A DNA stretch of 64,000 nucleotides from the NCBI GenBank assembly GCA_012813795.1, contig GCA_012813795.1_4087.1, one strand, 5' to 3'. This DNA is from a phage. Shown here in pieces: positions 16,882-41,956 of this stretch. The notes under the pieces were generated by a model. That model did not search any database and was not told the origin of the DNA. It worked only from the letters and a program-made list of their open reading frames with translations. Position numbers and translations under genes: made by a program. Numbering within the stretch: position 1 is the stretch's first letter; the number at the start of each line of letters is the position of its first letter.

Positions 16882-18408
16882 TTATTTCCTTTGATTCAAC
16901 CATTGTTTCATCATATTCGCACGATTAGTGCCAATATTAACAGGTTGTTGGGTTTCCTCTGTAGTGCTAGAAAGTGTAGCATTTTCTGTATTTAGTGTTA
17001 CGTCATCAGCTTCAACAGTACTTTGTGTTTGTACTGGTTTTTGTGCACCAGAAAGCGTGTGACGCAGTGTTTGCATAGTGGTTGGGGGGAGAGCCATGTT
17101 GCCACCACCGACCTTTGTTAGTCCGCTATGCTTGAACCCAGAACCATCGGTTTCGAATTGCTGAATGGTTGTTGCATGGTCCAACACACGTAATGAATCA
17201 ATGTCATAAGACATACGCAAACGCGAACCTACTGCACTACTGTTACGTGTTTTCTGGAAGTCAAACCACATCTCACCAGTTTCTTTACGTGCTTCAATGT
17301 AAATTACGTTATCTGCGGTATAGATCTTTGAAATACCACCAGCAATCTGACTTTGACTTTTCTTATCTTCACCCATACCACTACGGTTAAACTGGGATGC
17401 AGTGAATACAGTTAAATCCATTTTAGTTGCTAGAGCACGCAATTCTTCAGAAACAAACTTATCTTTGGTAAATGTATTAGATTTATCATTTGGACCTAGG
17501 CGATTAGATGTTAATAGATCTAAGTAGTCCACGCAAACATAGTCAAGTTTAATTTCCAATTTGATTTGTAATTCACGAAGGTAACTTTCAACATCATCTG
17601 TGGTTGTTACAGATTCAGGTAGACGCTTGATACGCATAACACCACTATTTTTACCTTCCATTTGTACTTGTAAACCGATTCGGTCAGCTTCATGTTTAAC
17701 ATTACTCAATTTGGATTCAGTCATCATACCATAGATACGGACTGCAACCAACTCTTCAGCAAGTTCTAGTGAAATGTAAGCACCGTTCAGTCCAGCTTTA
17801 GCAAAGTTTACTGCTAAGTTTTGTAGAACAACTGATTTACCACCACCTGATGCTGCGGCGAAGATTTCAAGTTCACGGCGACCGAAACCACCAAACAGTT
17901 TAAAGTCCAGTGTTTCCCAACCACTCTTGAATGAACCTTGCATCGTACTTAGTGAGCGAATTGTATCTTCTGGATTTTCAAAGATATCCAGACCTAGTTC
18001 GTTTTGTACAGAAACAAGCATAGCTTCACGAATTAGTTCTTCGATTCCACCATATTTTTTCTGATGTACTAACTCCATACCTTTCTCAACAGCTAAAGCT
18101 AGTGCTTTGTGTCGGCAGAACTCACTGCATGTATCAAGTACTGATTGCTTGTGTAGCTCACTTACTTCAGTACTATCATATGCAAAACCACCCTTAACTT
18201 CAATATCTTTTAAAGTTGGTGATGCACTATATTTTGCACTGTAATCATGAACGAATTTAATACTTTCATGAAAAGTGCTATCGAAATATTCAGGTTTAAG
18301 AATATTTTTACAGCGTACATATAAATCTGGGTTACTGAAAATTTGTGATAATAAATATTGTTGGGCATTAATCCCATATTGTTTGACGTCCACTGTGCTT
18401 TGAATCAT
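16882..18408 (-). CDS. 41: replicative DNA helicase (DnaB-like, T4 gp41 type)
   Basis: Walker A AAASGGGKS, DnaB-like motifs, sits next to the primase as in T4. Confidence 0.85.
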   Translation of the reverse strand: MIQSTVDVKQYGINAQQYLLSQIFSNPDLYVRCKNILKPEYFDSTFHESIKFVHDYSAKYSASPTLKDIEVKGGFAYDSTEVSELHKQSVLDTCSEFCRHKALALAVEKGMELVHQKKYGGIEELIREAMLVSVQNELGLDIFENPEDTIRSLSTMQGSFKSGWETLDFKLFGGFGRRELEIFAAASGGGKSVVLQNLAVNFAKAGLNGAYISLELAEELVAVRIYGMMTESKLSNVKHEADRIGLQVQMEGKNSGVMRIKRLPESVTTTDDVESYLRELQIKLEIKLDYVCVDYLDLLTSNRLGPNDKSNTFTKDKFVSEELRALATKMDLTVFTASQFNRSGMGEDKKSQSQIAGGISKIYTADNVIYIEARKETGEMWFDFQKTRNSSAVGSRLRMSYDIDSLRVLDHATTIQQFETDGSGFKHSGLTKVGGGNMALPPTTMQTLRHTLSGAQKPVQTQSTVEADDVTLNTENATLSSTTEETQQPVNIGTNRANMMKQWLNQRK

Positions 18409-18426: not shown

Positions 18427-19476
18427 TTACATCCATTTATCGGTTTGTGCTTTGATATAGAAAGGTTCGTCAACTATACTTTCGTGTATTAGTTGTAGAC
18501 AAAATAAACGACCATATTTGGCACAGGCTTCGTCAAAATCTTTTATGTGACGAATACCACTACCTTCTTTTACGGCTCCAAAGTTTGGGAAAGCAACACT
18601 AAATCCATGCTCCAATGCTTGGTCAATTGTCACTAAACCATCTTTATCCCTGTCTGGTACAATTACTACTTTTTTACCTTTACTCTGTGCCAGTTTGAGT
18701 ATTTCAATCTGTGGTGTAGATAACTTAAAGTTATTTGCTGATACACCACCCATCAATGCGGCATCCATTGGTCCTTCACATACCAATAAAGTTTTTATAC
18801 GTTCATCATTCAACAAATCATAATTGTACAAAATATTAGTACTTACCTGATTAATAAAACGATACGTACTTCCTGGGTCTTTTAATTTATGTCTTGCAGT
18901 ATACCCAATTATTTTACCATTCATATAGTAAGGTATAATAAATCTATCATACATTTTATGTTCTTTAGATGGACTCCAATATAATTCCAAATCCAATAGA
19001 TATGGATTTCGGTCATTTACTGCATTCAGTACACTAAAAAATTCATTGGGTGCATTATCATCTGAAGCCCATTCAAAAAATGTCTTTGAATTAGGTGGTA
19101 AATCGCGTGCTGTTACCCTTTGATATAACTTCGATGTGGTAGACTCTTGTTCAGCATAATCACCACTCTCTACCATTTCTTTTATGTAAAATTTTAATAA
19201 TTCTATATCTTTTTGTTGTGCACCAAAAGAAATGAGCAAAGACTCCATATCTTTGCTCATATATTTTCCAGGTTGCCAACCTGTCTTTAAACTACAGTTA
19301 AAACAGTTATAAGATACTGAACCATCAGAATTAAACATATGATTACCACGACCCTTTACATCAGGTCTTGAATGTCCACGAAACACACACATAGGACAGT
19401 TGTGGTGTGTCCATATACCAATACCAGGTACAGGGTCATTCATGATTTGTGCCATAATGTCTTGTACTGAGTTCAT
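18427..19476 (-). CDS. 61: DNA primase (T4 gp61 type)
   Basis: N-terminal Cys/His zinc-binding region (HHNCPMC...CFNC) and TOPRIM-like LVCEGPMD. Confidence 0.8.
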   Translation of the reverse strand: MNSVQDIMAQIMNDPVPGIGIWTHHNCPMCVFRGHSRPDVKGRGNHMFNSDGSVSYNCFNCSLKTGWQPGKYMSKDMESLLISFGAQQKDIELLKFYIKEMVESGDYAEQESTTSKLYQRVTARDLPPNSKTFFEWASDDNAPNEFFSVLNAVNDRNPYLLDLELYWSPSKEHKMYDRFIIPYYMNGKIIGYTARHKLKDPGSTYRFINQVSTNILYNYDLLNDERIKTLLVCEGPMDAALMGGVSANNFKLSTPQIEILKLAQSKGKKVVIVPDRDKDGLVTIDQALEHGFSVAFPNFGAVKEGSGIRHIKDFDEACAKYGRLFCLQLIHESIVDEPFYIKAQTDKWM

Positions 19477-19503: not shown

Positions 19504-19532
19504 ATTATATCACAGCTTATACCATCGTCTCA
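19504..19532 (-). promoter_or_regulatory. promoter, family TGAGAC-N13-GTGA-TATAAT
   Basis: Minus strand: TGAGAC gatggtataagct GTGA TATAAT upstream of the primase. Confidence 0.45.
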
Positions 19533-20507
19533 TCGACGAATCAAAATTTTAGGAACAGTTAAGAGTGGGTTATAGATTTTACGGATTGCAGCATAATCAT
19601 ATGGGATTGGCTTAGAGATTGGACGAATACTAACAATCACACGAAGCCACATATAATTACCTTTAAAATTAAATGCTTGTATACCTTCCAACGGAACGGG
19701 TACGCCATTTTCATCTATACCATTCTCGATGTACTCTTTTCCATCCAACTTGATAATAAACCACTTATAGTTATCACTATCACTTGGTACATCATTACTC
19801 AAGCATCCTTGTAACTGTATCCTACCAATAAAACCATTACAGTAAATTGCAATAGTACTTAAACCATCAACTAAACCATATTGCATTTGTGCTCTCAAAG
19901 GCGATGTACACATAACATCAAATTCACCTTTAAAACCATCACTAATAGGTTCTCTGAACGCAGACTTGATAGATTTCCAAGATGGATTCTGATCAGCAGA
20001 AACTTCAATGCTTGGTACGAAAACAGGTGCTGCTTTGTCGGAGATAATTAGTTCAGATGATGCTTCATAATTTAAACCAGTATATAAGTACTGTGTTGGT
20101 TCAATCAACGAACCGTCCATAGTTACTTTAGTAATACTCCATCTGTATTTGGAACCAGGACTAGTATCTTGTATAATACCAGCAGGGATTATACAACCAT
20201 AATATACTTTTTTACTATTACCCAATGTAGGTTTTGCCTGACCACTGTCATTTAACCAACTGGGTTGAATCTTTTCCAATACAGTATCAAACAAAACAGT
20301 GTTGTTACGTGCATCGAAAATCATAAATGTTAAATATTCATTAGTTTTTAATTGAGTGTACTTTCCATCAGCATTGTGTACTGTGAAAGTTACGTTATTG
20401 TTAGCACCACGATAAATCGTTAACTTATCATTGTTAAATGGCATATTAAAATTGCCCAATGATACTTCCTGATTATAAGGGTACATATACACACCGTGAT
20501 GGGACAT
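19530..20507 (-). CDS. hypothetical protein (possible virion protein)
   Basis: Start moved to the ATG at 20507 (MSHHGVYMYPYNQ) with GGAAGGAA RBS; the ORF-track N-terminal extension is low-complexity. Confidence 0.5.
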   Translation of the reverse strand: MSHHGVYMYPYNQEVSLGNFNMPFNNDKLTIYRGANNNVTFTVHNADGKYTQLKTNEYLTFMIFDARNNTVLFDTVLEKIQPSWLNDSGQAKPTLGNSKKVYYGCIIPAGIIQDTSPGSKYRWSITKVTMDGSLIEPTQYLYTGLNYEASSELIISDKAAPVFVPSIEVSADQNPSWKSIKSAFREPISDGFKGEFDVMCTSPLRAQMQYGLVDGLSTIAIYCNGFIGRIQLQGCLSNDVPSDSDNYKWFIIKLDGKEYIENGIDENGVPVPLEGIQAFNFKGNYMWLRVIVSIRPISKPIPYDYAAIRKIYNPLLTVPKILIRR

Positions 20508-20532
20508 GATTATTCCTTCCATAAATAATAGG

Positions 20533-20545
20533 TATAAATTTATAC
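20533..20545. promoter_or_regulatory. palindromic late-promoter-like element TATAAATTTATA between divergent genes
   Basis: Reads TATAAATT on both strands, about 25 nt upstream of each divergent start codon; the T4 late promoter consensus is TATAAATA. Confidence 0.4.
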
Positions 20546-20564
20546 TAATATTTATGGAACTCAT

Positions 20565-20918
20565 ATGAATCAATATAATACTATTCCACCATTTATTACA
20601 GTACTGCAATATAATGGTAAAACTTACATTGGTATCATCAAGATTAAAAGTAAGCAATATACTACTTTGTATTGTTTTGATCTTATGGATGAATCTCTGC
20701 AAGATGAATTGTTAGGAATAGCACATGATTGGTGGTGGCAAAGTAACAGGTCAATACCAGTGTGTCTTTTCTTTCAAGAAGAAATGGAGAAATTTGAACC
20801 CTTCACACAACGCTTCGATACACCTATGGTGAATTTTGTTTGTGGTCCGGTAATTTCGTTAAGTGATTTACCACAAAAACGTATTAAAAGACGTAATGTG
20901 GCACTCAAGAAGAAGTAA
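20565..20918 (+). CDS. hypothetical protein (117 aa)
   Basis: Plus-strand ORF in a divergent intergenic context. Confidence 0.45.
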   Translation: MNQYNTIPPFITVLQYNGKTYIGIIKIKSKQYTTLYCFDLMDESLQDELLGIAHDWWWQSNRSIPVCLFFQEEMEKFEPFTQRFDTPMVNFVCGPVISLSDLPQKRIKRRNVALKKK

Positions 20919-21543
20919 GATGTTCAACCAATGCGTTTAATTGTACCACAATCATTAAGCTATAAGCATAAGCATGTGGTTTTTTAAAATAACGCAATTT
21001 TTTGCCCTCACTATCTAGCCCAATACTACTATAATCCCAAATAACAGATTCCACTTCAGACCAAGAGTTCATACTTTGACAATTTCGTTTCCCTGGACGA
21101 ATCATAGCAATAAACATAGCCAACTCGTCTATAGAACGGGGTTTCCAAACATTAAGTAAAGTTATATGCTTTTTAATTTGTGATAAATGATCAACAATTT
21201 CTGGTTCTAACAACAGATCCCAATTAGGCTCTCTGTTCATAAGTTCCTTTAGATGTTCTCTGTCACGAACATACATGTAAGCCGATTGTGAAAGGATATC
21301 AACCTTCTGATAACCCAACCTCTCGGCTTCTTTATATTGTATACTAGCCAATCCAGTTATTGGATCAATTGGAATATTATCAAAGTGTACACCACTATTG
21401 TGTGCAATCAATCCATCTTCTGTAATCTTTTCAGTACTTCTTACACATGGCAATTGAGCTATGACAGATTTACTATCTTTAAAATCAATATCAATATCTG
21501 TTCTAGCTTTTCTGTAATGATTAGAATTGGTTGAATCCTGCAT
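20905..21543 (-). CDS. hypothetical protein with DnaE (Pol III alpha) palm/finger-like motifs
   Basis: DIDIDF, KVDIL, AMFIAMIRPG and KPHAYAYSL.V.Q...L occur in the same order as the DnaE PDFDVDF, KFDFLGL, ALVALFRPGP and KSHAAAYALVSYQT motifs; motif-level only. Confidence 0.45.
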   Translation of the reverse strand: MQDSTNSNHYRKARTDIDIDFKDSKSVIAQLPCVRSTEKITEDGLIAHNSGVHFDNIPIDPITGLASIQYKEAERLGYQKVDILSQSAYMYVRDREHLKELMNREPNWDLLLEPEIVDHLSQIKKHITLLNVWKPRSIDELAMFIAMIRPGKRNCQSMNSWSEVESVIWDYSSIGLDSEGKKLRYFKKPHAYAYSLMIVVQLNALVEHLTSS

Positions 21544-21850
21544 TCTTTATTTGATCCTGTAATTTATTAATAGAATTTCTTAAGGTTCGTATTTCGTTTT
21601 CCATGTACTGAATCTTTCTTTTCAACTGTGCTGACTCACTAGACACAGAATGTAAACGTTCTTCATGCCTCTCGACTAGCTTAATCAATTGTTCTATTTT
21701 TACTGGATCATGAACTTGGAACGTTTTGTCACCCAATGTTATTTCAGTTATGCTTCCTTGACGAAGTAATTGTAATTCTTTACTTTTGTCCGATTTAGGT
21801 ACAGGAACGTACCCTTCTGGTATTTTATTGTATATACTTTTATTATTCAT
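21521..21850 (-). CDS. hypothetical coiled-coil protein (109 aa)
   Basis: ORF. Confidence 0.5.
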   Translation of the reverse strand: MNNKSIYNKIPEGYVPVPKSDKSKELQLLRQGSITEITLGDKTFQVHDPVKIEQLIKLVERHEERLHSVSSESAQLKRKIQYMENEIRTLRNSINKLQDQIKNAGFNQF

Positions 21851-22554
21851 AAACCCACCTGAGTTAACATGCTTCTTATATCCTCAAACTCTTTCTTATA
21901 TTTCAACTTTTTAATTTCAAAAAAGCTAGGATCGATGTATTTAAGTATATATTCAAATTCAGAATCTGATAGTCGTGAGAACAATTCATTGGATGAACTC
22001 ACTGGGGCAGTCCATATCAACCAAGGTGATATTTTACCACTTTCAATCCAAGAAATCAAACGTGCAGAACTAACATTCTTAAAGAATGTATTCCACGGAT
22101 TATTTGTCATTTGTTCCCATTCTACTAAAGCATTTACGCTTCTTGCAACGGCATCGTTTGGATGCTCATTTCGTATACATGAAAGTATCCATTCATCCTT
22201 AGCTTTGTAGGTGCTCCATTGCATAATAGGAACATTAGTTCTCATAAGATGTAAAGTGAAATCATCTATATGCAATATATCCCTATTATTCAGATAGTAT
22301 TCGGCAAAATCATAGAAATCTTTAAAGTATCTTGACTTTATAAAACTAATGTATGGTTCTAAATCTTTTTTAATTTTGAAATTATTAGTTTCCATGAATT
22401 GCATATACAAACGAAAAGCCTCACGCATAGTGCGGCTATCTCGATTATCATATCTATCACGCTTTTCACATTTGTGAGAATGTACAGTATCTTCACGTTT
22501 AAATTCACGATCACAAAATTTACATTGATATACAGGTTTAGATATCTTTGCCAT
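21847..22554 (-). CDS. hypothetical protein with N-terminal C2H2-like zinc finger
   Basis: CKFCDREFKREDTVHSHKC near the N-terminus. Confidence 0.5.
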   Translation of the reverse strand: MAKISKPVYQCKFCDREFKREDTVHSHKCEKRDRYDNRDSRTMREAFRLYMQFMETNNFKIKKDLEPYISFIKSRYFKDFYDFAEYYLNNRDILHIDDFTLHLMRTNVPIMQWSTYKAKDEWILSCIRNEHPNDAVARSVNALVEWEQMTNNPWNTFFKNVSSARLISWIESGKISPWLIWTAPVSSSNELFSRLSDSEFEYILKYIDPSFFEIKKLKYKKEFEDIRSMLTQVGL

Positions 22555-25873: not shown

Positions 25874-26692
25874 TTAGTTAGTACGACTACTATACTCGTA
25901 CTCAAATGTATATACTAAATCTTTATCACAGTTTGGATTACTCGTGTCTAGGATATCACTATTAGTAATCATCCATTCAATGTAATTCAATGGTACAGTA
26001 CTCATTGGTTCGCCTTTATGCTTACCAAATGGCATAAATTGATAACACATTGGTGTATTGCAGAATGTGACAATTTGTTCACCAATATCCTGTTCTGGAT
26101 CAATATGACCACGTTCAATAGCAACTTCAATAAGTTTAATTAGAACCTGATAGCACATGAATACATCATCTTTTGCAGCATGAGCATTAACAGGACGATG
26201 TACATCACGATAACATCCAAATTTATACCACAAATAACTTAGTGTTAGATTTTTGAATTCTACATCTTCAGCAAACATTTTCTTAGCAAAACGAAGGGTA
26301 CAAATCCATTTATCCTCATCAAGAAGATACTGTGAAATTGAGTTACGATATTTATATTCATTATCAACCATCATTCTACGGTCAAATTGTACATTGTGAC
26401 CAACATAATATTCTCTGCACCCCATTAGTGCATCAATATTTTCGAGATCATCTTTATACCCAATACAATTTGCAACATCTTCAGTACTGATAAAATGCAC
26501 TGCCGACGCTTCAGGTGGAATGTCTTTCAATGGTTTATATCGCAATGTATAGTTATCAACTGTGTCAATATTTTCATGTGCATTTTGAGGATAAGAAATA
26601 CTAAATTCAATAATATCATCATCACTCTCAACACCAGTGGTTTCAGTGTCGAGTACTGAAACTTGTTTTAGAAAATCATCTATTTTAGACAT
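25874..26692 (-). CDS. DEDDh 3'-5' exonuclease (DnaQ-like, DexA-like)
   Basis: Exo motifs VLDTETTG, YYVGHNVQFD and HAAKDD. Confidence 0.7.
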   Translation of the reverse strand: MSKIDDFLKQVSVLDTETTGVESDDDIIEFSISYPQNAHENIDTVDNYTLRYKPLKDIPPEASAVHFISTEDVANCIGYKDDLENIDALMGCREYYVGHNVQFDRRMMVDNEYKYRNSISQYLLDEDKWICTLRFAKKMFAEDVEFKNLTLSYLWYKFGCYRDVHRPVNAHAAKDDVFMCYQVLIKLIEVAIERGHIDPEQDIGEQIVTFCNTPMCYQFMPFGKHKGEPMSTVPLNYIEWMITNSDILDTSNPNCDKDLVYTFEYEYSSRTN

Positions 26693-28394: not shown

Positions 28395-33287
<4,893 letters not shown>

Positions 33288-38950: not shown

Positions 38951-41900
38951 TTACCAAGAGAAGAAACCATTGTTAACTGCTGCTGTACTTTTCTCATGAA
39001 TACCAATATCCATATCGAGAATACCAAAGATGTTTTCTAATTTCTTAGTTAAAACTATCTCTTCCATTTTCTCACTATCAAACGGTAATTCTAAGAACCA
39101 TTCCGGTAGATACTCTACACAGTCAATTGGATATCCTACAGCTTTAATTCCCATTGGGTTATCTTTTAGATTACACACGATAACTTTTGTACCATCAGTA
39201 ACTTCTGGTACTGACTTGTCATCATACACTTCACGTAGACGGTTCCATTGAATACCTGCCAATACGTGTCCTACTTTACACTTACCAGTAGTGTTATATT
39301 CCGCTTCCAGATTAGTGTAGTTCTTAACTGTTCGCGGAGAACCTTTCTCGTGTACTGGAATGTCTTTAAATACCGCTTTAAAGTCACGTACACGCTGTTT
39401 TAGTTCTTCCTCTGACTCCCCTACCAGTAGGGCGATTAGAGTCTCTTCTAGGAAGTTCTGGATGTATTTTGGCGTATCTGAACGTTTAATCTCAAGACCC
39501 ATTGCCTTGATTTCACCAGGTTTACCATCAACATCTTTACGGAAACCATCTTCCCAGTACTTCAGAATTGCATAACGTTTCTTCTTCAGGAACAATCCAC
39601 GAGAACCTACCATCTCAAGGTCAGCACCTACAATCTTACCTTTCTCAATTCCAGTGTTGAACATCTGATGCATAAAAGATGGGAAGGACTCACCAACTTC
39701 ATCACCAATTTTAATGTACATATCAACAATTTCTTCTTTAGATAGATTGTACGGAATACCTTGTTCTTTCAAGTAATGGGTTACACTGAAGTATACGGAG
39801 TCAGTATCACCATAAATTACAGAACCACCCTGGTGATTGTAAACACCAGTTGTAATTTCATTGATACGACTCGCCATGTGTTTAGTCATAGAACGACCAG
39901 TTAAGGTAACAGACTGACCCAAACGCTTATCAAAGAAACGTGAACCTTTGTTCAATAGTGCACCATATAGACTGTTTAGAAGAATCTTACGAATCTGCTG
40001 GTTCTGTTTCCAGAATGCACTTTGTTGTTTGAAATATGCTTTATCTTCTTTAGAACAGAAAATTCTTCCGTCTTTTAGTTCTAAACCATTTTCAACAATT
40101 AGTTTAGCTACATCTTCCCATTGACCTTTACCAATTGCAATACGCAATAGATAAACAGGATCATTTTCATGTAAGTTGGTGCGGAACATTGTACCAGGAG
40201 TATAGTTGGATAGAAGTGGTTCTACTTTCTCATAACCATTAAATTCCCAACCATCACTATACATGTGTTTGTAATCAATTACCATCTTTTGTTGTGCTTT
40301 ACGTTCAGAATACCATTGAGTTAGAATGTCTGGAATTACACCATACTTAGACTTGTCAAATAGTGTTCCGTTAGCACTTAGAACAATAGTACTGTCCTCG
40401 GCAAAGATTATATCATACAACTCTTTACCTGTTGCCTGGAAAGAACTTCCATCTTCCAAATCAACAATGATTGTTTGATCTGATTTCTCATGAACCATTG
40501 TAAACTCAACAGCAGCAAACAAACCATGCCATGCAGCAGTCCAGTCTGGTTCGAACGATTTAGATTTTGATTTGGCCTTTTGCTCTTGAATTTTTGCAGC
40601 AAGATACGCATCAGTGTAATCCTGACGAAGTTGCCCAAGAATGCATTCAGTACTCATACCTAATGTACGAAGTACAGTTGGATACAGTGAGTTAAAGTCA
40701 GTACATCCCAAATCACTCACCAAACCTAGTACTGGATCTTGTACCCATGCACCAGCAGCTTTAGCACTAATTTTCTCATCTGCTTCATCATCTTCATCTT
40801 CATATGATTCTGTTTCATAATCAACTTCAAAATCATCTTTAGGTGCTTTGTTGAATACCACTTCACCACGACTATGTGCAAGGTTAATAATTGCAGTATC
40901 AATCAGAGCTACCGAACCCATTGTAGTACTAATTAGTACACACTCTTTATGAGCAAGACGGTTGTGCAGGTTGATAAAGTCACATACAGCATCAATTTTC
41001 TTCAGAAGAATACTATCCTGTTTAGAATAACGCAAGAATGTAATGTAATCTTCACGATATAGTTTATCCAAAGAACCTTCATAAGATACTTTATTCTCTT
41101 TAGTTACTTTCTCTGCAATGTAATCTAGTTTATATGATTGTTCAACTTGACCAGCATGTTTCTTATAAAGAGCAAGATAATCTAAGTGAACACGTCCAAC
41201 TAAATCATAGGTTACTACAGTTTTACCAAAGTTATCTGCTTCACGAGCATTAGGTTTCTTATTCCACAAGCACCAACGAGCAGTGGTTGCTTCATTGAAG
41301 ATTTTCTTTGTGCGGTTAATCATGTATGGAATATCAAAGAACTCACTATTCCACCCTGATAATACATCAGAATCATCAATAAGACTAAAGAATTCCATAA
41401 ACATTTCTTTTTCATCCGTATAAAGGATGACAGTACTGTTAGGATCATTTGTCTCTTCGTTCAAACGTCGAACAATGTCTTGTGCTTCGTAAATTTCCAT
41501 GTCAACTGGTGGTAGTGTTAAAACATAATCCTTACCAGTCCATGATTGATACAAAGAAATTGCTGTTACTCGGTTGAACGGATCTGATGGTGGTGCATAA
41601 CCAAACTTCTTATGGAAGTCGGTTTCGATATCGAAGAATGCAATATTAAGGTCAGGTGAACCATTACCCATGTATTCCTTCGCTAACGTTTTAAATGTAA
41701 TGTTACAGTCACTTTCAAAAATACGTAGACCTTCACTTTTGTGTTGTTCTACACTTTTGTTCATTTGAGCCTGTGAAGAAAACTCAAGATGTTGTGCCAT
41801 TGTACCATATACAGTTTTGTGTGTACCTAATGGTGATTCTACATAATACTCAAATACTGGCTCCAGTTCACGGAGAATACGCTTCCCGTTTTTACGTTCA

Positions 41901-41956
41901 ACTACGTGAAGAATATCACCAGTACGTTTACGTTCCATATAAGCATCGATATACAT
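38951..41956 (-). CDS. 43: DNA polymerase, family B (gp43-like)
   Basis: 1001 aa with exonuclease and polymerase motifs including YGDTDSVYF. Confidence 0.9.
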   Translation of the reverse strand: MYIDAYMERKRTGDILHVVERKNGKRILRELEPVFEYYVESPLGTHKTVYGTMAQHLEFSSQAQMNKSVEQHKSEGLRIFESDCNITFKTLAKEYMGNGSPDLNIAFFDIETDFHKKFGYAPPSDPFNRVTAISLYQSWTGKDYVLTLPPVDMEIYEAQDIVRRLNEETNDPNSTVILYTDEKEMFMEFFSLIDDSDVLSGWNSEFFDIPYMINRTKKIFNEATTARWCLWNKKPNAREADNFGKTVVTYDLVGRVHLDYLALYKKHAGQVEQSYKLDYIAEKVTKENKVSYEGSLDKLYREDYITFLRYSKQDSILLKKIDAVCDFINLHNRLAHKECVLISTTMGSVALIDTAIINLAHSRGEVVFNKAPKDDFEVDYETESYEDEDDEADEKISAKAAGAWVQDPVLGLVSDLGCTDFNSLYPTVLRTLGMSTECILGQLRQDYTDAYLAAKIQEQKAKSKSKSFEPDWTAAWHGLFAAVEFTMVHEKSDQTIIVDLEDGSSFQATGKELYDIIFAEDSTIVLSANGTLFDKSKYGVIPDILTQWYSERKAQQKMVIDYKHMYSDGWEFNGYEKVEPLLSNYTPGTMFRTNLHENDPVYLLRIAIGKGQWEDVAKLIVENGLELKDGRIFCSKEDKAYFKQQSAFWKQNQQIRKILLNSLYGALLNKGSRFFDKRLGQSVTLTGRSMTKHMASRINEITTGVYNHQGGSVIYGDTDSVYFSVTHYLKEQGIPYNLSKEEIVDMYIKIGDEVGESFPSFMHQMFNTGIEKGKIVGADLEMVGSRGLFLKKKRYAILKYWEDGFRKDVDGKPGEIKAMGLEIKRSDTPKYIQNFLEETLIALLVGESEEELKQRVRDFKAVFKDIPVHEKGSPRTVKNYTNLEAEYNTTGKCKVGHVLAGIQWNRLREVYDDKSVPEVTDGTKVIVCNLKDNPMGIKAVGYPIDCVEYLPEWFLELPFDSEKMEEIVLTKKLENIFGILDMDIGIHEKSTAAVNNGFFSW

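Follow-up and report, generated by a model that had tools for sequence, protein, structure and literature searches.

A small protein of an Asteriusvirus-like jumbo phage as the probable C-terminal half of a minimal DNA polymerase III alpha encoded by two genes

The C-unit and its relation to DnaE

The stretch of DNA analysed here, called the window in what follows, comprises 64,000 nucleotides (nt) of a phage genome (contig GCA_012813795.1_4087.1 of the GenBank assembly GCA_012813795.1). Its nucleotide identity is 97.7% to Escherichia phage A4 and about 77% to phages of the 121Q type, and the phage is an Asteriusvirus-like jumbo phage (121Q / PBECO4 / RaK2 group). On the minus strand, at positions 20905..21543, lies an open reading frame (ORF) of 212 amino acids with an ATG start, in which an earlier note on this DNA had pointed out five motifs of DnaE, the alpha subunit of bacterial DNA polymerase III (Pol III), in their canonical order. 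All five are present. The product comprises the catalytic beta-sheet of a Pol-beta-like palm together with a reduced helical fingers module, and we consider it likely that the ORF, hereafter the C-unit, codes for the metal-binding C-terminal half of a minimal Pol III alpha, a C-family (DnaE-like) polymerase distributed over two genes. The other half, the N-unit, is encoded by a separate gene, and the two together are referred to below as the mini-enzyme.

The motifs, all on the minus strand, can be paired one by one with those of Escherichia coli DnaE. DIDIDF (amino acids 16-21, positions 21481..21498) corresponds to D401-x-D403-x-D405 and supplies the first two catalytic aspartates; it pairs with DFDVDF when the fused profile is aligned by hhalign, and it is also aligned, across the junction between the two halves, in Pfam PF07733. 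AHNSGV (amino acids 47-52, 21388..21405) corresponds to the GKHAGGV strand (residues 509-515), with H48 paired by hhalign to the histidine of KHAGGV. The hhalign alignments further match KVDIL (amino acids 80-84, 21292..21306), which carries the third catalytic aspartate, to K553-F-D555, and AMFIAMIRPG (amino acids 142-151, 21091..21120) to the fingers helix ALVALFRPGP (633-642). Finally, KPHAYAYSL (amino acids 188-196, 20956..20982), directly preceded by K187, corresponds to NKSH760SAAY, the O-helix of the fingers with the proposed steric-gate histidine, and FKKPHAYAY of the C-unit pairs with FNKSHSAAY of DnaE by hhalign. The aspartates D16, D18 and D82 align to D401, D403 and D555 in both the PF07733 and the hhalign alignments, and the strands of the structure model span residues 17-21 (DIDIDF), 44-53 (AHNSGV) and 80-85 (KVDIL). 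In the E. coli dnaE gene (NC_000913.3), the counterparts are PDFDVDF at 400-406, GKHAGGV at 509-515, KFDFLGL at 553-559, FRPGP at 638-642 and NKSHSAAYAL at 757-766. The E. coli motifs quoted in the earlier note therefore agree with the real gene except for one, given as KSHAAAYAL, which reads KSHSAAYAL. E. coli H760 is the proposed steric gate that touches the sugar of the incoming deoxynucleoside triphosphate (dNTP), and it is described as invariant in Pol III alpha (PMC8485763).

Searches that used the sequence of the C-unit by itself returned weak signals. Its sole Pfam match was DNA_pol3_finger (PF17657, amino acids 129-160) with an E-value of 0.19 and 11.5 bits, against a cut-off of 22, and a phmmer search of the PDB sequences gave weak matches to unrelated proteins, such as mannosylglycerate synthase (E 0.28). 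A profile of 23 C-unit family sequences found only DnaE1 of Mycobacterium tuberculosis among the PDB sequences, at an E-value of 1.4 and in four collinear pieces. With hhalign, the C-unit reached a probability of 4.6% against the single E. coli DnaE and of 27% (E 6.6e-4) against an alignment of 17 DnaE sequences. The latter profile was shallow, because the scan of genome contigs had yielded only gammaproteobacterial DnaE proteins with at least 67% identity, to which one DnaE from a Streptomyces phage and one from a Clostridium phage were added. Since the sequence searches with the C-unit alone were weak, a structure comparison and a joined profile of N-unit and C-unit were required.

Both gave a clear answer. 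The AlphaFold2 model of the C-unit, built on the family alignment, was confident, with a predicted local distance difference test (pLDDT) score of 92.3. When the model was compared with the PDB by Foldseek, the top eight matches were Pol III alpha chains with probabilities of 0.87-1.0, and the rest had probabilities of 0.08 or less; only C-family polymerases match the model. The C-unit also matched PHROG 11778, 'DNA polymerase', over its full length (E 3e-106). The joined N- and C-unit profile aligned with the DnaE alignment over 341 columns at a probability of 98.5% (hhalign, E 1.5e-15), and among the PDB sequences it found nine matches, all of them Pol III alpha, at E-values of about 3e-11. 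The profile search and the structure prediction that the earlier note had proposed as checks thus both came out on the side of DnaE, with a significant profile match for the joined halves and a fold related to that of Pol III alpha. This confirmed that the C-unit is homologous to, and folded like, the part of DnaE that contains the three catalytic aspartates, the KHAGG strand, the first helices of the fingers with the RPG motif, and the O-helix with the steric-gate histidine.

To determine the extent of the family, 1.84 billion representatives were searched exhaustively with a profile. This identified 509 members as representatives at 50% identity; at 90% identity, the family has about 590 clusters. 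Nearly all of them are stand-alone proteins of 190-220 amino acids. Conservation was counted over 104 family representatives taken from the clusters at 50% identity. Fourteen positions of the C-unit are conserved in at least 90% of them (D16, D18, D20, H48, G51, K80, D82, W108, P135, A142, R149, P150, K187 and H190), and 11 of the 14 belong to the DnaE active-site motifs DxDxD, KxD, RP and K-x-x-H, the exceptions being W108, P135 and A142. Conservation amounts to 98% for D16 and D18, 95% for D20, 97% for H48, 96% for G51 and 100% for both K80 and D82, and in the C-terminal motifs to 97% for R149, 98% for P150, 90% for K187 and 95% for H190. The gene is also under strong purifying selection. 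Comparison with its counterpart in phage Turkey3 revealed 91 synonymous and 16 non-synonymous codon differences, and identities of 88.7%, 94.4% and 54.5% at the first, second and third codon positions; the rate of non-synonymous substitution (dN) is 0.07 and that of synonymous substitution (dS) is saturated.

The N-unit and the split of the palm

The C-unit starts only 15 residues upstream of the DxD motif, and the half of the palm that binds the nucleoside triphosphate (NTP) through the glycine/serine motif (GS-motif; GRGSGAGS) is not in the same polypeptide. In Pol-beta-fold nucleotidyltransferases, a glycine/serine loop upstream of the DxD strand binds the triphosphate, and to our knowledge every nucleotidyltransferase of this fold does so by means of the GS-motif helix-turn. 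In phage A4, whose C-unit is 100% identical in amino acid sequence to that of the window, the N-unit is A4_84, a protein of 172 amino acids with the C-terminal end ...GLGRGSSVASYCLFLIGLHMVDSLKYDLDVNEFLKW. Its gene is located about 31 kb from the C-unit, at a place that, by comparison with A4, would fall about 10 kb outside the window on the side of coordinate 1. A4_84 matches phrog_11127 (E 9e-87), and it matches Pfam PF07733 above threshold on its own (38.6 bits, E 1.2e-9, profile positions 16-95). When the N- and C-units were concatenated, the score against PF07733 increased from 38.6 to 52.6 bits (cut-off 23.9; E 6.7e-14), and the alignment crossed the junction into DIDIDF, up to profile position 112. 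The sequence G.GRGS was kept in 110 of the 110 N-units examined. The genes directly upstream of the C-unit were also considered as the missing half, and the three proteins in question (a 109-amino-acid coiled-coil protein, a 235-amino-acid zinc-finger protein and a protein of 280 amino acids) showed no polymerase-related Pfam or PHROG matches.

Two members of the family are natural fusions of an N-unit and a C-unit, both on metagenomic contigs. The first, P0176 (positions 1066-2193 of locus L004), has 375 amino acids; it shares 36% identity with the A4 N-unit over residues 10-180 (E 5e-26), followed by a match to the C-unit profile at residues 189-372 (E 7.8e-49). The second, P0267 (3171-4181 of locus L091), is shorter, with 336 amino acids, and its gene shares 4 nt with the gene upstream of it, whose product has the Pfam domain PF03090, 'Replicase'. 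In the joint alignment, the ends of the N-units and the starts of the C-units fall on the same column of the natural fusions, and this split point is the loop immediately before the DxD strand.

Outside these fusions, the halves of the mini-enzyme are separate genes, 11-43 kb apart. An N-unit was found within 8 kb of the C-unit in none of 80 diverse loci from the IMG/VR database, so that the separation of the two genes is itself conserved. The two units nevertheless travel together, since in phage records the numbers of N- and C-units are equal for each genus: Escherichia (34/34), Pseudomonas (11/11), Salmonella (8/8), Erwinia (8/8), Xanthomonas (4/4) and Yersinia (4/4). The Alishewanella phage Slickus01, a non-jumbo phage of 141 kb, also has both units, 11 kb apart. 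Its C-unit occupies 68346-68957 of OQ508957.1 (18346-18957 of locus L173), and its N-unit, which is unannotated and was detected by hmmsearch (E 1.8e-17), occupies 79796-80308 (29796-30308 of the same locus). Therefore, the split enzyme is not confined to phages larger than 200 kb.

Mapped onto E. coli DnaE, the mini-enzyme is a strongly abridged version of the polymerase. The N-unit covers palm residues from about 290 to 395, including GRGSGAGS (361-368). The C-unit continues with D16, D18 and D20 at the places of D401, D403 and D405, after which the thumb (about 410-505) has no counterpart. The segment from H48 to G51 then corresponds to the KHAGG strand, K80 and D82 to K553 and D555, and the helices up to R149-P150-G151 to the fingers up to R639-P-G. 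Most of the fingers, from about 645 to 745 and including LRRAMGKKK (708-716), is again without a counterpart, and the O-helix follows, with K187, H190 and Y194 at the places of K758, H760 and Y764. The hhalign alignment of the mini-enzyme stops at DnaE residues 772-774. The Pfam scan of the C-unit gave no matches to a PHP domain, a thumb, complete fingers, a beta-clamp-binding motif or an OB fold, which bears out the earlier statement that PHP and OB domains are missing; the gaps at the thumb and in the middle of the fingers were also seen by hhalign. The mini-enzyme lacks the tau-binding region as well, and no other Pol III domains were found among the window ORFs scanned.

Replication genes around the C-unit

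The C-unit is embedded in a block of replication and recombination genes. Downstream of it, on the same minus strand, are a primase (18427..19476; phrog_47, DNA primase, E 5e-33) and a DnaB-like replicative helicase (16882..18408; Pfam DnaB_C, E 1.4e-16). Upstream, also on the minus strand, lies the gene for the 235-amino-acid protein with an N-terminal C2H2-like zinc finger (21847..22554; phrog_11058, function unknown), which had no Pfam match and, among the PDB sequences, only marginal matches to C2H2 zinc fingers (E about 0.9). On the plus strand, a convergent ORF of 117 amino acids (20565..20918; phrog_11637, function unknown, E 1.9e-56) overlaps with its 3′ end the 3′ end of the C-unit.

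The conservation of this arrangement was analysed in the 80 IMG/VR loci, most of them with C-units 38-47% identical to that of the window, and loci were counted when they offered a flank of at least 4 kb for the primase and DnaB or of at least 3 kb for the zinc-finger protein. Of the 56 loci with enough flank, 54 had a primase homologue downstream of the C-unit on its strand and 53 a DnaB homologue, and a homologue of the zinc-finger protein was present upstream on the same strand in all 59 loci that could be evaluated. A homologue of the convergent ORF was found on the opposite strand in 79 of the 80 loci, usually just downstream of the C-unit. PA5oct and Slickus01 have the same gene order, the convergent ORF included.

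Two genes of the block have labels of a different kind. Directly upstream of the C-unit, the 109-amino-acid coiled-coil protein (21521-21850, minus strand) matches phrog_14909, 'virion structural protein', and is labelled 'tail needle protein gp26' in fEgEco12; the start of the C-unit overlaps the end of this ORF, its stop included, by 23 nt. Because the coiled-coil protein occurs in only 2 of the 80 diverged loci, it lies outside the conserved cassette. A virion structural gene is also located among the replication genes at 19530-20702 on the minus strand, where it is listed as an ORF of 390 amino acids with a TTG start. Its PHROG virion match begins at residue 66 and its relatives have about 325 amino acids, so the real start is probably an internal ATG.

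Along the direction of transcription, that is, with falling coordinate, the block consists of SSB, RecA/UvsX, UvsY, a DnaQ-like exonuclease, UvsW, several genes of unknown function, the zinc-finger protein, the coiled-coil protein, the C-unit, the virion protein, the primase and DnaB. The exonuclease, of the DnaQ/RNase T type (25874-26692, minus strand, 272 amino acids), has a C-terminal QSregVF_b / ExoX-like tail, and its label in relatives is Pol III epsilon in some cases and exodeoxyribonuclease X in others. If it proofreads for the mini-enzyme, it would have to do so without a PHP domain as a docking site for epsilon. The window also encodes UvsW, a Dda-like helicase and ribonucleotide reductase (RNR), and RecA/UvsX, UvsY and SSB are annotated in relatives. 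As the earlier note had stated, the phage possesses, here as part of a T4-like replisome, a family B DNA polymerase (38951..41956, minus strand, 1001 amino acids; Pfam DNA_pol_B_exo1, E 3.8e-22, and DNA_pol_B, E 5.3e-21), which is presumably its main replicase.

Proposed function, alternatives and comparison with known polymerases

If the C-unit is one half of a minimal Pol III alpha, as we think likely, it would assemble non-covalently with the N-unit to form a single Pol-beta-like palm that carries a small fingers module. This complex would be expected to catalyse the two-metal, dNTP-selective and template-directed addition of nucleotides to a 3′-OH. As it has neither a thumb nor clamp contacts, it is probably distributive. 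Because the gene almost always lies close upstream of the primase and DnaB, the most likely place of action is the replication fork. The role that we prefer is short-patch synthesis, for instance the extension of primers that the family B polymerase would then take over; alternatively, the complex might fill gaps or synthesise DNA in repair.

Several points weigh against this reading. The sequence evidence from the C-unit alone stays below threshold, both in Pfam and with the PDB profile. The N-unit was not found in the 64,000 nt of the window, where the best tblastn match (E 0.054) was spurious, and its presence in this phage's own genome is extrapolated from phage A4 at 97.7% nucleotide identity. 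Likewise, we infer the physical interaction of the N- and C-units from their fusions and co-occurrence. The LRRAMGKKK segment, which helps to bind the incoming triphosphate in the Taq and PolC ternary complexes, is deleted, and therefore nucleotide binding may differ; the absence of the thumb leaves the binding of duplex DNA without an explanation. The choice between primer extension and repair is a guess from the gene neighbourhood. Biochemical or genetic data on any family member were not found in the literature, including the PA5oct omics and CRISPRi-ART studies, nor was an experimental follow-up found in the 2026 survey of bacterial polymerases or in the Sharanji and RsoM2USA genome papers.

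Because about 100 residues of the fingers are lost, there is still room for the strongest of the rival explanations, according to which the complex of N- and C-unit is an active Pol-beta-fold nucleotidyltransferase and not a templated DNA polymerase. Such an enzyme could add untemplated 3′ tails, prime de novo, nucleotidylylate protein or DNA, or make a small nucleotide product; we give this explanation an outside chance, well below that of the templated polymerase. A different version, already raised in the earlier note, is that the C-unit is a minimal nucleotidyltransferase sufficient by itself, with no need of the N-unit. It can draw on the facts that the C-unit has all three catalytic aspartates and a confident fold by itself, and that none of the 80 loci has an N-unit within 8 kb. 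However, the C-unit is devoid of the GS-motif helix-turn, an element that is invariant in the separate N-unit, the N-unit co-occurs with it genome by genome, natural fusions of the two are known, and adding the N half doubles Z. We regard self-sufficiency as very improbable. What holds of the earlier suggestion is the broad notion of a minimal nucleotidyltransferase, and the protein is indeed a homologue, drastically reduced, of the palm and fingers of DnaE; it is not a whole enzyme, since the GRGS half is encoded by a separate gene of 172 amino acids.

The two explanations without catalysis are less probable still. Inactivated polymerase paralogues act as scaffolds elsewhere, and the C-unit could in the same manner have kept a polymerase-like fold without catalysis and serve the phage replisome as a structural or regulatory subunit; but inactive paralogues normally lose their metal ligands, whereas conservation in this family is highest at D16, D18 and D82, together with K80 and H190, which leaves such a subunit barely credible. 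Least probable of all, to the point of being negligible, is that the C-unit is a functionless fragment of a former full-length dnaE in the course of decay, the gene remnant that had been considered in the earlier note. The C-unit indeed has only a fraction of the length of DnaE, and breaks close to this position occur in other phage DnaE genes. Against this, the family comprises hundreds of members at 50% identity with a uniform length of about 190-220 amino acids, synteny is kept down to about 38% identity, the fold is predicted with high confidence, and purifying selection is strong, with active-site residues conserved at 95-100%. Conservation and purifying selection together rule out a decaying remnant and disfavour a catalytically dead scaffold.

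The preferred reading, a split polymerase of the Pol III alpha type, can be carried further into a more specific proposal, which we put forward as doubtful. The split mini-Pol III might be a dedicated primosome polymerase that extends the primers made by the adjacent primase and passes them on to the family B replicase, with the zinc-finger protein (21847-22554) as a third subunit that grips the DNA in place of the thumb, and with the split of the palm having originated from the insertion of a homing endonuclease or intron at the DxD motif. On its own, the zinc-finger protein is possibly such a third partner, a DNA-binding substitute for the thumb.

The mini-enzyme is the smallest natural version of the catalytic core of the bacterial replicase, with about 380 amino acids in two chains, and the phages that have it otherwise rely for replication on a family B polymerase of the archaeo-eukaryotic type. 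If the primosome polymerase reading were true, no smaller functional C-family core would be known, and the mini-enzyme would be a tractable model of this fold and a phage counterpart of eukaryotic Pol alpha or Bacillus DnaE3. Experiments can start from the exact split point, the expressible fusions, the steric-gate histidine, the linkage to primase, helicase and zinc-finger protein, and the 141-kb phage.

Compared with the full-length enzymes DnaE and PolC (PF07733 plus PF17657; PDB 2hpi, 2hnh, 5m1s, 3f2b and 7pu7), the mini-enzyme has about 380 instead of about 1160 amino acids, and its palm, which is contained in one chain in DnaE and PolC, is divided between two polypeptides. In Bacillus subtilis, DnaE (DnaE3) is a full-length, clamp-binding polymerase that extends primers and then hands them over to PolC. 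Its resemblance to the mini-enzyme would be a functional analogy only, that of a C-family polymerase working at the primosome beside the main replicase. By this analogy, the linkage of the C-unit to the primase and the helicase suggests a DnaE3-like division of labour with the family B polymerase.

Interrupted full-length dnaE genes in other phages come closer to the split itself. In the dnaE of Clostridium phage CS266P1 (3032-6600 of locus L088), an I-HmuI-like HNH ORF is found one residue before DIDVDF, at most about 10 residues from the split point of the mini-enzyme. The dnaE of Bacillus phage vB_BceM_WH1 (2960-7158 of locus L086) is annotated in three pieces, the first break being just after PDVDTD. 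A search for a group I intron in both genes gave no Rfam match at the gathering thresholds. Both are full-length polymerases whose adjacent pieces are presumably rejoined by splicing, in contrast to the halves of the mini-enzyme, which are far apart in the genome. It may be speculated that the split of the mini-enzyme arose by insertion of a homing endonuclease or an intron at the catalytic motif, as in CS266P1.

The closest known system is the one reported for group 2.2 jumbo phages. The accessible parts of Iyer et al. 2021 (Viruses 13:63, PMC7824862) describe a phage-specific minimal Pol III alpha that consists of two proteins, an N-terminal one that binds NTP and a C-terminal one that binds Mg2+ and template, encoded by distant genes and co-present with a family B polymerase. 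Iyer et al. propose that the polymerase resembles the ancestral module of Pol III, and that it serves these phages as an additional polymerase, either to synthesise one of the strands or in repair. Still earlier, the phage CBB paper had mentioned a 'truncated' DnaE-like protein of 172 amino acids, and both PHROGs and a number of GenBank records already give the gene the label 'DNA polymerase' or 'DNA polymerase III subunit alpha'. The split mini-DnaE was thus already published as a kind in 2021, and the gene described here is a rediscovery, to which the present analysis adds details: the fusions, the 141-kb host phage, the near-universal synteny and the conservation of the steric-gate histidine. 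Because the idea of Iyer et al. is still a proposal, the value now is in experiment and not in discovery. As far as the accessible parts of their paper describe it, this is the same system: the ORF of the window is its C-terminal unit, and nothing essential differs.

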